DNA of 62,583 nt from Bacteroidetes bacterium HGW-Bacteroidetes-17 (GCA_002840985.1 PHDM01000003.1:1-62583); one strand, 5' to 3'; positions 16,678-19,962 are shown, counted from the first letter of the stretch. The notes: generated by a model not told the origin, from the sequence alone. Translations and numbers: made by a program.

Positions 16678-17832
16678 TTAGTATCCCTCAAAATATTCCT
16701 TCATTCGAATAAAAAAACTTTTGTCCTTACTGCTAGGTTTAGGGATAAAGTTTTCTGAATTTGATAAAGATTCAAGGATTCTCTTTTCTTCTTTGCTCAA
16801 ATCTTTGGGTGTCCATACACTGATGTTGATCAGCATGTCGCCCTTTCCGTATGAATTTACATTTGGAAGGCCTTTTCCTTTTAATCGGAGTATGCTTCCC
16901 GATTGGGTACCCGGTGCAATTTTTATTCTGGCTTTACCGCTAATCGTTGGGATTTCAACACTTGTACCCAGAGCTGCCTCAGAAATACTGATGTATTTAT
17001 CGTAAATGATATTGGATCCATCCCTGATTAATTCAGGATGGACGATTTCCTCAATTAAAATAATCATGTCGCCGGGAACCCCATTTCTGGCACCGGCATT
17101 TCCTTTGCCACTGACCGACAGTTGCATGCCTTCGGTAACGCCTGCAGGAATGTTAATTTTGATTACATCATCGCCTTTTACAATGCCATTTCCGGCGCAG
17201 GTATGACAAATGTTTTTTATAACCTGACCTTCACCTCCGCAATGAGGACATGTTGATGAAGTTTGCATTTGTCCCAGAAAAGTATTGGTTACCCGGGTTA
17301 CCTGACCACTGCCTCCACAAGTTGAACAGGTAGAATGTGATGCACCACCTTCTGCTCCTGAACCTGAGCAAGTAGTACATTTAACATATTTGTTAACCTT
17401 GATGGTTTTTTCGATGCCATTGGCAATTTCTTCAAGAGTAAGTTTTACTTTTACGCGAAGATTCGATCCTTTATTTACCCTTCTTCTTCGGGTGTTGCCG
17501 CCAAATCCACCAAATCCACCACCAAAAGCACTTCCGAAGATATCCCCGAAATTGCTAAAGATATCATCCATGCTCATTCCGCCACCGTAACCATTACTGG
17601 CTGCGCCTCCTACTCCGGCATGACCGTATCGGTCGTATCTACTTTTTTTATCAGGATTACTTAATACTTCGTAAGCTTCTGCTGCTTCTTTGAATTTATC
17701 TTCAGCCGTTGGATCATCCTGATTTTTATCAGGATGGTACTTAATAGCCTGCTGACGGTAAGCCTTTTTGATTTCAGCTTCCGTAGCATCTTTTGAAACT
17801 TCTAATATTTCGTAATAATCTCGTTTCGACAT
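16678..17832 (-). CDS. dnaJ: Molecular chaperone DnaJ
   Basis: J-domain HPD, G/F-rich region, four CxxCxGxG motifs. Confidence 0.98.
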
Positions 17833-17870: not shown

Positions 17871-18512
17871 TTAGCTACCCACTACTACTTTAGCGTATCT
17901 GATTACTTTGTCGCCGAGCATATAGCCTTTCTCCACTTCATCGATAATTTTGCCCTTCATGCTTTTGTCAGGAGCTGGTATTTCTGTAATTGCTTCATGG
18001 AAATCAGTGTCAAAAGTTTCACCTATCGATTTCATTACCTGTAAGCCTTTTGCTGTTAATGCAGATTTAAATTTATTGTGAATCAAGGTTATCCCTTCTT
18101 TAAAATTGTCCTTGTTATCAGTATCCTCAAGGGCCTTAAAGGCACGATCAAAATCATCCATAACGGGTAACAATGCCATGATAATCTCTGTAGAAGCAGT
18201 TTTTGTCAACTCAATTCTTTCCCTAAGCGTTCGTTTACGGAAATTGTCAAACTCAGAAAACAAGCGTAAAAACTTATCGTTCAACTCAGCGTTTTTTATT
18301 TTCAATTCATCGAGTTCTTCCGACTCTTTTCTTTCTTTGCGGGATTTTTTCTTCTTGTGTTTTTCTGTTGAATCTTCAATTTCAATTTCATCGTCAGCAT
18401 CATGCAACCTGCCTTCTTCCTGAGTTTCTTCAGTTTTTGATTTTGGCTCAGTACCCTCAGCTTTCGTTTCTTTATTAATATCTTCCTGATTCTTATTTGC
18501 TTCTGTTACCAT
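17871..18512 (-). CDS. grpE: Nucleotide exchange factor GrpE
   Basis: SEFDNFRKR, FDTDFHEAI, KGYMLGDKVIRYAKVVVG. Confidence 0.97.
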   Translation of the reverse strand: MVTEANKNQEDINKETKAEGTEPKSKTEETQEEGRLHDADDEIEIEDSTEKHKKKKSRKERKESEELDELKIKNAELNDKFLRLFSEFDNFRKRTLRERIELTKTASTEIIMALLPVMDDFDRAFKALEDTDNKDNFKEGITLIHNKFKSALTAKGLQVMKSIGETFDTDFHEAITEIPAPDKSMKGKIIDEVEKGYMLGDKVIRYAKVVVGS

Positions 18513-18559
18513 TACTAAGTATAATTGAATATTGAATGAATAGTTTAGGGTTTTAGCAT

Positions 18560-18576
18560 AGCAAATTATTTGCCAA
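18560..18576 (-). promoter_or_regulatory. sigma54-type -24/-12 promoter for grpE-dnaJ
   Basis: Minus strand TTGGCAAATAATTTGCT = GG-N10-GC in TGGCA/TTGC context, about 47 nt upstream of the grpE ATG. Confidence 0.65.
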
Positions 18577-18587
18577 GCCTGTTATTA

Positions 18588-18640
18588 GGACAAATTGTCA
18601 TAAATTTTGAATCGATAAAATAGAATATGAAATTGTGGCA
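18588..18640. promoter_or_regulatory. Two near-palindromic TG(A/C)CA-N3-TGTCA-like boxes upstream of the sigma54-type element
   Basis: GGACAAATTGTCA at 18588-18600 and TGAAATTGTGGCA at 18628-18640, starts 40 bp apart. Confidence 0.5.
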
Positions 18641-18654
18641 AAAACTGCATGGGA

Positions 18655-19962
18655 TTAATCAATACGTTGAATTTTTGCTCCTAGTTTACGTAACCGGATA
18701 TCGATGTTTTGATAACCACGATCAATTTGTTCGATGTTATGAATTACACTCTTTCCTTCAGCCGATAATGCCGCGATGAGCAATGCAACCCCGGCCCGAA
18801 TATCAGGGGAGGTCATAGAGATCCCACGTAATGGGTTTTCGCGATTTAATCCAATTACGGTTGCACGGTGAGGATCGCACAGGATGATTCGTGCACCCAT
18901 ATCGATGAGTTTATCCACAAAAAACAACCTGCTCTCAAACATCTTTTGATGGATGAGCACGCTTCCTTTGGCTTGTATCGCGATCACCAGCATGATGCTG
19001 ATCAGATCGGGGGTAAACCCGGGCCACGGTGCATCGGCGATAGTCATGATCGACCCGTCAATGAAAGTTTCGATTTCGTATTCTTTGTGTTCGGGAATAT
19101 GAATATCATTCCCTCTTTTTTCAATTCTGATGCCCATTCTTCTGAACATCTCAGGAATGAGACCTAAGGCTTCATAGTCAACATCTTTAATTGTAAGTTC
19201 CGATTGCGTCATGGCTGCAAGCCCAATGAAACTTCCCACTTCAATCATGTCGGCCATCATGCGATGATCGCATGCACCCAGATTATCAACGCCATCAATC
19301 ACCAATAAATTGGAGCCGACCCCACTAATTTTAGCACCCATACCAATGAGCATCTTTGTTAGTTGCAGAATATAGGGTTCGCAAGCTGCATTAAATATGG
19401 TGGTTCGGCCTTGGGCCAGCGTTGCTGCCATCAGAATATTCGCGGTTCCCGTAACCGAAGCTTCGTCCAATAACATATATTTACCCTGAAGCCTTTCAGC
19501 TTCAATTCGGTAAAAACTTTCTTTGGGTTCGTACGAAAATTTTGCACCAAGTGCTTGTAAACCAAAGAAATGGGTATCGAGTCGTCGACGGCCTATTTTG
19601 TCACCTCCCGGTTGTGGGATATAAGCTTTGCCAAAACGTGCAACCAAAGGACCAAGAATCATGATTGAGCCGCGTAAACTGGCTGCTTTGATTTTGTATT
19701 CTTCAGTTTTTAAAAGTTCAAGATCAATCTTTTTAGCCTGAAATGAATAAGATCCTTCAGCAAGGCAGGTAATTTCTACCCCAAGGTATGCCAATAATTC
19801 AATCAGCTTATTTACATCGCGGATGTCGGGAACATTATGTACTGTGATTTTTTCAGGAGTGAGCAGGGTGGCACAGATAATTTGTAAGGCCTCATTTTTT
19901 GCGCCTTGCGGGGTAATTTCCCCATGTAATTTCTGGCCTCCTATGATTTCAAATGAGCTCAA
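18655..19962 (-). CDS. murA: UDP-N-acetylglucosamine 1-carboxyvinyltransferase (TTG start)
   Basis: GAKNEAL, LRGSI, ASVTGT, NAACEP, APWPGF, MFESR, DIRAG, IDRGY. Confidence 0.96.
   Translation of the reverse strand: MSSFEIIGGQKLHGEITPQGAKNEALQIICATLLTPEKITVHNVPDIRDVNKLIELLAYLGVEITCLAEGSYSFQAKKIDLELLKTEEYKIKAASLRGSIMILGPLVARFGKAYIPQPGGDKIGRRRLDTHFFGLQALGAKFSYEPKESFYRIEAERLQGKYMLLDEASVTGTANILMAATLAQGRTTIFNAACEPYILQLTKMLIGMGAKISGVGSNLLVIDGVDNLGACDHRMMADMIEVGSFIGLAAMTQSELTIKDVDYEALGLIPEMFRRMGIRIEKRGNDIHIPEHKEYEIETFIDGSIMTIADAPWPGFTPDLISIMLVIAIQAKGSVLIHQKMFESRLFFVDKLIDMGARIILCDPHRATVIGLNRENPLRGISMTSPDIRAGVALLIAALSAEGKSVIHNIEQIDRGYQNIDIRLRKLGAKIQRID

Follow-up and report, generated by a model that had tools for sequence, protein, structure and literature searches.

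Introduction

The closest described counterpart of the locus studied here is in Flavobacterium psychrophilum, where 5' ends were mapped and groES-EL, lon, dnaK, grpE-dnaJ, htpG and clpB were assigned to a -24/-12 motif named SM4 (Guerin et al., 2021, PMC9723704). The available parts of that report list the grpE 5' end with a coverage of 582 and an SM4/Sig54 probability of 1 (supplement file 3, row 1158), and note three PF00158 proteins as possible activators while assigning none. A later survey with position-specific scoring matrices (PSSMs) predicted sigma-54 promoters across Bacteroidota and Planctomycetota and, in the portion available, found them enriched at the GroEL, GroES, IbpA, GrpE, DnaJ and DnaK clusters of orthologous groups (COGs) and at HSP90, Clp and Lon (Carrera-Reyna et al., 2025, PMC12316311). 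Here we analyse a 62,583-nucleotide stretch of DNA from Bacteroidetes bacterium HGW-Bacteroidetes-17, an uncultured member of the Bacteroidales (the window, with positions counted from its first letter), in which a predicted sigma-54-type promoter and a palindromic box stand upstream of the chaperone genes grpE and dnaJ.

A sigma-54-type promoter at these chaperone genes is already published for the phylum; the idea of such a promoter in a preliminary description of this DNA, made from the sequence alone, was thus not new, and the grpE-dnaJ site adds one more example. What is apparently undescribed is the palindrome, together with its probable activator, a protein that has no sensor domain. 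A full-text literature search, with most subscription journals outside its reach, returned no rpoN mutant data and no publication that deals with the palindrome or with the protein likely to bind it, and the words palindrome, enhancer and inverted repeat are absent from the main text and nine supplementary files of the F. psychrophilum report (PMC9723704). The 2025 survey also contains, in the part available, a sentence that calls GrpE and GroES sigma-54-dependent in Bacteroides thetaiotaomicron and F. psychrophilum and cites a Blattabacterium genome paper (its reference 80, PMC12316311). The citation is apparently a mistake (the data for F. psychrophilum are in PMC9723704), and we do not rely on the sentence.

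Results

A predicted sigma-54-type promoter and a palindromic box upstream of grpE

All of the elements lie in the short gap between grpE and the murA-like gene that precedes it:

18513..18654, minus strand: murA-grpE intergenic region, 142 bp, holding all elements (from open reading frame (ORF) calls)
18561..18576, minus strand: sigma-54-type promoter core, with -24 element T-TGGCA at 18576-18571 and -12 element TTGC at 18564-18561 (from sequence and orthologue conservation)
18588..18600, minus strand: proximal 13-bp palindromic box TGACAATTTGTCC, candidate activator site (upstream activating sequence, UAS), centre near -45
18628..18640, minus strand: distal degenerate box TGCCACAATTTCA, its start 40 bp upstream of the proximal box start (from sequence; weakly supported)

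The preliminary description had claimed an exact GG-N10-GC spacing, two boxes 40 bp apart, and a gap of 11 nt between the nearer box and the -24 element, and counting on the minus strand bears out all three distances. Exactly 10 nt lie between GG (18574-18573) and GC (18562-18561), the doublet spacing of TGGCAC-N5-TTGCW-type promoters, and the core reads TGGCAA-ATAAT-TTGC over 18575-18561. The two boxes start at 18640 and 18600, and 11 nt separate the proximal one from TTGGCA at 18576-18571; TGACAATTTGTCC thus has an upstream offset of 25 nt, measured from its start to the T of TGGCA (18575-18571). Transcription from sigma-54 promoters usually starts about 12 nt downstream of the -12 element, and from this geometry we predict a grpE +1 near 18549 and a 5' untranslated region of about 37 nt.

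The same layout of box and promoter is seen in the grpE upstream sequence printed for F. psychrophilum in the available part of that report (PMC9723704). As the preliminary description had also stated, there is no CIRCE (controlling inverted repeat of chaperone expression) element, with zero matches in the window at up to three mismatches. No Rfam family matched across 18300-18800, hence no known RNA thermometer or leader there, and the murA-grpE gap holds one Escherichia coli-type sigma-70-like match, which is at chance level.

Promoter and box are conserved together at grpE

We compared the region in an order-level sample of 30 grpE loci of relatives (12 of the same genus and 17 of other families, plus the window's own). 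GGCN-N7-TG was found upstream of grpE in 26 of the 30, and in 22 of the 30 a box started 25-26 nt before it. The four loci without a match are accounted for: three are cut by contig ends (L023, L039 and L041), and in the fourth (L037) the site is visible and the start codon had been chosen too far upstream. We then considered 80 public grpE loci from across the phylum, covering Bacteroidales, Lentimicrobiaceae, Prolixibacteraceae, Sphingobacteriales, Chitinophagaceae, Flavobacteriales and Cytophagales. In this unselected sample GGCA-N7-TG was present in 75/80 loci, and a box started 23-27 nt upstream of a GGCN-N7-TG site in 62/80, figures that overstate the support to the extent that related genomes are not independent. 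Most apparent exceptions keep both elements: in Bacteroides and Phocaeicola the box stands 55-57 nt upstream, and several Flavobacteriales sites have TGGC(T/G/C) in place of TGGCA. The search takes the box nearest to 25, which biases the modal offset, so that the evidence lies in the concentration at that offset.

Among grpE orthologues TGGCA-N5-TTTG is kept, and an information profile shows that the spacer between the elements is not conserved. The box that the preliminary description had suspected as an element, TG(A/C)CA-N3-TGTC, is indeed conserved at a fixed offset in grpE loci. Its idea of paired boxes survives in part: the proximal box holds, and the distal one is degenerate and confined to the genus, being kept as TGNCA-N3-TTTCA in same-genus loci (L014-L020) and not seen in the other families.

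Could the motifs be chance matches, with grpE-dnaJ expressed only by read-through from murA? TGGCA-N7-TG is a common pattern, occurring 16 times in the window (7.6 expected from shuffles) and 682 times genome-wide; the exact form TGGCA-N6-TTGC occurs 47 times on both strands of the genome against about 14 by composition arithmetic. No terminator-like site was found between the murA-like gene and grpE, which also suits this explanation. Taken alone the motifs are unremarkable, and the evidence therefore consists in how orthologous promoters keep them together at a set spacing and in their reappearance at further chaperone genes. On both counts the chance explanation fares badly: the gene upstream of grpE differs between lineages while both elements and their spacing are kept phylum-wide, and the elements recur at chaperone genes unlinked to grpE. 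We regard it as extremely improbable.

The promoter recurs at other chaperone and protease genes

The preliminary description had proposed looking for the motifs at other chaperone genes, and a -24/-12-type element is present at them in the same genome: dnaK, groES, htpG, hsp20-clpB, a clpC-like gene and lon each have TGGCA-N7-TG at 50-140 nt before the start codon. The check it proposed in other Bacteroidota came out likewise, with the element conserved at grpE, groES, htpG and dnaK in relatives and across the phylum.

We built a position weight matrix (PWM) from 100 grpE, groES, htpG and dnaK promoters of relatives, the genome's own sites included. With this matrix grpE (the top score, 21.7), dnaK, groES and htpG are among the five best of 7.2 million genome positions, a ranking that is circular, as their own sites and orthologues trained the matrix. 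The hsp20-clpB and lon sites were outside the training set and score 18.1 each, where just 25 of the 7.2 million positions exceed 17.

The box accompanies most of these promoters at varying distances. At htpG, relatives have the promoter at 27/29 loci and the box at 24-25 in 23/29. At groES the promoter is found at 24/27 loci and the box at 45-47 in 13/27, two helical turns further out, the window's genome having a TGACA half-site at offset 25. The dnaK promoter is found at 22/25 loci, where the box offset is 147-161 within the genus and, for other families, either 25-35 or 86-87. Two boxes lie 125 and 156 nt upstream at hsp20-clpB, and at lon (contig C72 of the window's genome, G000) the TGNCA boxes come after the sigma-54-type promoter, in the stretch that leads to the start codon. 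Among the 66 sigma-54-type PWM hits scoring at least 15 in the genome, only grpE, htpG and one low-scoring stray have a full box at 23-27, and groES has its half-site. Judged by these matches, the box is specific to the chaperone subset of sigma-54-type sites.

Several further observations were made at these and similar sites. Between secG and groES (L171:795-862, on G000 C181, minus strand) an A-run is followed by a 17-bp stem that includes TGTCAGAT and ATCTGACA and then by a U-run; this hairpin is probably the secG terminator, and it overlaps boxes assigned to the groES promoter. The adjoining secG (L171:869-1182, same contig and strand) appears split, a 75-aa ORF corresponding to a SecG-like N-terminus and a 29-aa ORF to the C-terminal tail, through either a frameshift or an assembly error; in relatives, a tail matching the 29-aa ORF ends the gene upstream of groES. 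A second hsp20 gene (G000 C146) is preceded by a TGACATAATGGCG box, 5 nt, and then TTGCAAAATATTTG, which is one mismatch from TGGCA-N5-TTTG and differs in spacing; it may be a decayed or variant promoter. Finally, on contigs C11, C15 and C40 of the same genome, sigma-54-type TGGCAC-N4-TTTG-N sites lie upstream of FtsX-like ABC permease genes (N-termini MacB/FtsX-like), on C11 and C40 near receiver-type activator genes. These fit a remark on antimicrobial-peptide ABC transporters in Bacteroidia in the available part of the 2025 survey (PMC12316311).

Sigma-54 compared with other promoter systems

The window's genome, which is 87% complete, encodes rpoN (Sigma54_DBD, E 2.6e-51) and has 20 strong Sigma54_activat matches (E <1e-63). 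We also looked in it for the regulators that classically control these genes. There is no PF01628 match, the HrcA family, in the genome and no CIRCE in the window, so we do not place the locus in an HrcA-CIRCE regulon. Nor do we place it in a sigma-32 regulon, since the two best matches to the RpoH model TIGR02392 reach 158.6 and 149.5 bits, below the cut-off of 323.1.

An ordinary promoter of the primary sigma factor (sigma-ABfr) would read the same bases differently, taking the TTTG in the right half of the palindrome as -33, ATAATTTG as -7, and the extra conserved bases as operators. TTTG-N21-ATAATTTG does fit the published TTTG / TAnnTTTG layout, as quoted in the available part of PMC7366714, and TTTG is the best-conserved part of the downstream element. 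The TA of TAnnTTTG, however, is not kept (T in 16/100 and A in 46/100 of the chaperone promoters), so that the conserved TA-N2-TTTG of Bacteroidota primary-sigma promoters is not seen; in the window the element reads ATAATTTG. Against a primary-sigma promoter stand also the GGCA at the -24 position in 75 of the 80 unselected grpE loci, the groES element, which reads GTG and not TTTG, and the identical TGGCA-N7-TG that marks seven chaperone units. The orthologous F. psychrophilum 5' end, moreover, is assigned in the available data to the sigma-54 motif and not to the sigma-A motifs SM1-3 (PMC9723704). We consider a primary-sigma promoter improbable.

The RpoN-type promoter that the preliminary description proposed for grpE-dnaJ is thus supported as far as sequence goes, by its recurrence and conservation, by the presence of rpoN and of activators, and by the failure to find HrcA, RpoH or CIRCE in the searches above. 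The grpE promoter is, in our judgement, very probably of the sigma-54 type.

Distribution of the activator family and HrcA

One of the activator genes of this genome, encoding a 405-aa protein that has no receiver domain, stands out as the candidate for these promoters and is described in the following section. We followed its family and HrcA across 150 genomes of the phylum with a completeness of 90% or more, calling the activator at E 1e-90 or better. The activator was found in 89/150 genomes and HrcA in 81/150, distributed as follows:

HrcA absent: activator present in 67 genomes, absent from 2
HrcA present: activator present in 22 genomes, absent from 59

In the window's class the activator was present in 37/37 genomes and HrcA in 0/37. 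The 22 genomes with both divide into 12 with a full-length activator match at 41-47% identity and 10 in which only the AAA+ part matches.

The region upstream of grpE was then compared in 40 genomes outside the window's class. In all activator-negative genomes (20/20, from three families) hrcA lies directly upstream of grpE, with no intergenic promoter of sigma-54 type. In two HrcA-negative, activator-positive families the GGC(A/T)-N7-TG promoter occurs together with a TTGTCA half-box (8/8 and 3/3 genomes), and in a third such HrcA-negative family, represented by two genomes, the box is present with no promoter within 230 nt. The hrcA-grpE arrangement was seen in seven genomes that have both HrcA and an activator match. 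On these patterns the activator family predates the loss of HrcA, and in this sample its presence is necessary and not sufficient for a sigma-54-type promoter at grpE.

A receiver-less candidate activator

We scanned 19 of the 20 activator genes of the window's genome for receiver domains, the twentieth (448 aa) being outside the scan. Receiver domains were found in 17/19, leaving a 329-aa protein, whose gene adjoins its own sigma-54-type site, and the candidate:

G000 C181:2496-3710, minus strand: 405-aa receiver-less candidate activator (PF00158 and HTH_8)

The 405-aa protein has the two parts expected of a bacterial enhancer-binding protein, an AAA+ domain with a GAFTGA loop and a C-terminal helix-turn-helix (HTH). 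Its PF00158 match (E 3.7e-67) covers residues 12-178 and includes the Walker A motif GESGTGKE and a GSFTGA loop; the Fis-type HTH (HTH_8, E 2.1e-13) covers residues 365-402, where the structure model has a predicted local distance difference test (pLDDT) score of 81-87. Between them lie a conserved helix after the lid and then an acidic linker of about 100 residues, partly disordered in the model (mean pLDDT 70). The Walker A motif, the GSFTGA loop and the HTH helix ISERTLYRK are invariant in 21/21 orthologues, and the HTH core (S/T)ERTLYRK is kept in 18/18 more distant ones, a constancy that matches that of the TGNCA half-site. Among the 25 NCBIfam families shown, the protein reaches the cut-off of none; against the PspF equivalog TIGR02974 it scores 276.6 bits, the cut-off being 443.55, and it is not a member of that family.

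In the window's genome the gene order is pheT, activator, lptE, a 252-aa gene (X), secG and groES, the 252-aa product being a Bacteroidota-only, coiled-coil/TPR-like protein. The activator-lptE pair is kept in 20/20 relatives fetched, the 252-aa gene in 17/20 and secG in 17/20. In the order sample an orthologue of the activator was recovered from 30/31 genomes, the exception being G006 (78% complete), and in 17/31 the orthologue is encoded on the strand of groES and at most 4 kb upstream of it.

Upstream of the activator gene itself, the window's genome has no TGGCA-N7-TG, giving no sign of sigma-54 autoregulation of the activator operon, and does have a primary-sigma-type box, TAACTTTG, without a half-site. 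In other families (L237-L239, L242, L243 and L247) a primary-sigma-type -7 box, TAATTTTG, stands before the gene and merges directly with a TGTCA half-site (gTAATTTTGTCAg), a fusion that could allow autorepression. A second short activator, 389 aa with a receiver and an AAA+ domain and no HTH, is encoded at G000 C53:66282-66992. Look-alikes of it are found 3-8 kb from grpE in six other families (G015, G019, G021, G022, G023 and G030), not in the window's genome, and this type could be a second input to the same promoters.

The palindrome is, with good probability, the site of a regulator. Whether this regulator is the 405-aa activator is more evenly balanced: the link is an association, formed by synteny, by the phyletic pattern and by the paired constancy of HTH and half-site, and it is circumstantial. 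The main rival to the full model is that the promoter is sigma-54-dependent and that another protein, such as an HrcA-like repressor or anti-activator or an RprY-type response regulator, binds the box, the activator acting from elsewhere or without specific DNA binding. RprY of Porphyromonas gingivalis, which in the available part of its description acts like a repressor and binds promoter fragments of groES, dnaK and clpB (PMC3646045), offers a precedent. The fixed offset of 25 at grpE and htpG, beside the holoenzyme footprint, would suit a blocking or modulating protein, and an activator type without an HTH, the 389-aa one, lies near grpE in six other families. On the other hand, box positions vary widely at dnaK, groES and lon, those at lon even being downstream of the promoter, and such variable distance and orientation are enhancer-like, arguing for the site of an activator and against an operator. 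The P. gingivalis htpG promoter was not bound by RprY, yet htpG has the clearest box here, and the available text of that paper gives no motif, the terms consensus, repeat and footprint being absent from it (PMC3646045). The invariance of the candidate's HTH helix, like that of the half-site, also favours the 405-aa protein. On balance we think binding by another protein unlikely.

Genes around the promoter

The genes on either side of the promoter are:

17871..18512, minus strand: grpE, 213 aa, ATG at 18512 (Pfam GrpE, E 8.1e-42)
16678..17832, minus strand: dnaJ, 384 aa, 38 bp downstream of grpE (Pfam DnaJ, DnaJ_CXXCXGXG and DnaJ_C)
18655..19962, minus strand: murA-like gene, 435 aa, stop TAA at 18657-18655 (Pfam EPSP_synthase, E 2.1e-61)

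Because the gap between them is short (38 bp), grpE and dnaJ are probably co-transcribed. The label murA comes from the preliminary description and is based here on the match to the EPSP_synthase fold only; transcription from this gene may read through into grpE. A search for RNA runs yielded only two metatranscriptome contig sets, which contain 6-7% of the sampled words and cover short coding parts of grpE and dnaJ at 90-99% likeness, from relatives. The murA-grpE intergenic region is uncovered by these two sets, which consequently have no bearing on the transcription start or on read-through.

Discussion

We propose that grpE-dnaJ would be transcribed from an RpoN promoter with a -24 TGGCA and a -12 TTG(C) at 18575-18561 and a start near 18549. 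This promoter would be part of a regulon comprising grpE-dnaJ, dnaK, groES-EL, htpG, hsp20-clpB, the clpC-like gene and lon, which would replace HrcA-CIRCE control in the class to which this bacterium belongs and in some of its sister lineages within the phylum. The sigma-54 holoenzyme cannot open DNA by itself, so an ATP-driven enhancer-binding protein is needed. The palindrome TGNCA-N3-TGNC(A), with its centre near -45, is most likely the binding site of that activator, and the best candidate for it is the receiver-less, PspF-like 405-aa protein of the pheT-activator-lptE-X-secG-groES cluster. We lean slightly towards this full model, which joins the sigma-54 promoter, the palindrome, the receiver-less activator and the complementarity with HrcA, on the strength of the sequence comparisons. 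RpoN dependence at this locus, heat induction, the identity of the box-binding protein and the way heat is sensed are the parts of it that we infer.

In its broadest form, to which we give distinctly less credence and which we offer tentatively, the model would make activator and palindrome the master heat-shock switch of the class Bacteroidia and a few sister lineages, having taken over upon the loss of HrcA-CIRCE. In this form the activator would work from a promoter-proximal site on a fixed helix face: the spacing among offsets of 25, about 46 and about 86 comes close to whole turns of the helix, and looping of the DNA would not be required. As it has no sensor domain, the activator would be switched in trans. 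Candidate means of such control are titration by the controlled chaperones themselves, or the conserved 252-aa coiled-coil/TPR-like protein encoded two genes downstream.

A number of observations tell against this proposal. A box centred near -45 is much closer to the promoter than typical enhancers are. The TGNCA-N3-TGNCA 13-bp pattern has no genome-wide enrichment (34 found and about 40 expected by composition), support for the distal box is weak, and the conservation figures are affected by the relatedness of the genomes and by the offset search as described above. The canonical C of the -12 element is not conserved, the base after its TG being A in 59, C in 21, T in 19 and G in 1 of the 100 chaperone promoters (the search pattern had fixed GGCA and TG, and only the remaining columns are informative). 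Other presumed sigma-54 sites, beside activator genes of the same genome, also read TTTG-N, which makes the missing C look like a lineage trait and the perfect TTGC of the window partly luck. The clpC-like promoter is without a box. The groES sites of this genus have their outer TGTCA/TGACA pair in the stem of a strong hairpin with a U-run after it (-19.7 kcal/mol, z -4.75), which may be no more than the secG terminator. The synteny of the activator with groES could be incidental, given its envelope neighbours lptE and secG, and three checked HrcA-positive genomes with the full-length activator family (G045, G166 and G158) have the hrcA-grpE arrangement without a sigma-54-type promoter. No terminator-like site was found between murA and grpE, and read-through from murA may occur. 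Lastly, the shifts of groES, dnaK and clpB promoter fragments by P. gingivalis RprY were obtained in an electrophoretic mobility shift assay (EMSA), according to the available part of that paper (PMC3646045).

No regulator is known to have been named by experiment for the sensing of heat or protein-folding stress in Bacteroidota. Among the major bacteria of this phylum are inhabitants of the gut, the mouth and the environment and pathogens of fish, and the main class of the phylum has no HrcA in our sample (0/37), RpoH having been examined in the window's genome only. The grpE-dnaJ layout and the complementarity of HrcA and activator over 150 genomes yield a directly testable model in which a single activator gene and a single 13-bp site serve seven target operons. 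If true, it would join alternative sigma-70-family factors and repressors as a third major way in which bacteria control heat shock, and would include an unusual sigma-54 activator that works from about -45.

Compared with described systems, the proposed regulon is most like the SM4 regulon of F. psychrophilum, which shares its gene set and -24/-12 motif and comes from a different order and a cultured organism. The 2025 survey predicts sigma-54 promoters at the same kinds of gene; it is purely computational and, in the part available, names no upstream site or activator (PMC12316311). RprY of P. gingivalis is a Bacteroidales regulator that binds groES, dnaK and clpB promoter regions, and its authors remark on the absence of CIRCE (PMC3646045). 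Unlike the activator proposed here, it is a response regulator proposed to repress, for which the available text gives no motif and which left htpG unbound (PMC3646045). HrcA-CIRCE and sigma-32 control the same genes elsewhere; here no CIRCE was found in the window, and no HrcA or above-cut-off RpoH in the genome. In E. coli, PspF drives the psp operon, a sigma-54-dependent stress response, and has no N-terminal sensor domain, so that it is controlled in trans. The 405-aa candidate is alike in having no sensor domain, and differs in falling below the PspF cut-off, in its linker of about 100 residues, in its target genes and in a site much closer to the promoter. We know of no PspA-like partner for it. 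Either of the two forms of trans control suggested above, titration by chaperones or the 252-aa protein, would resemble the action of E. coli PspA on PspF.

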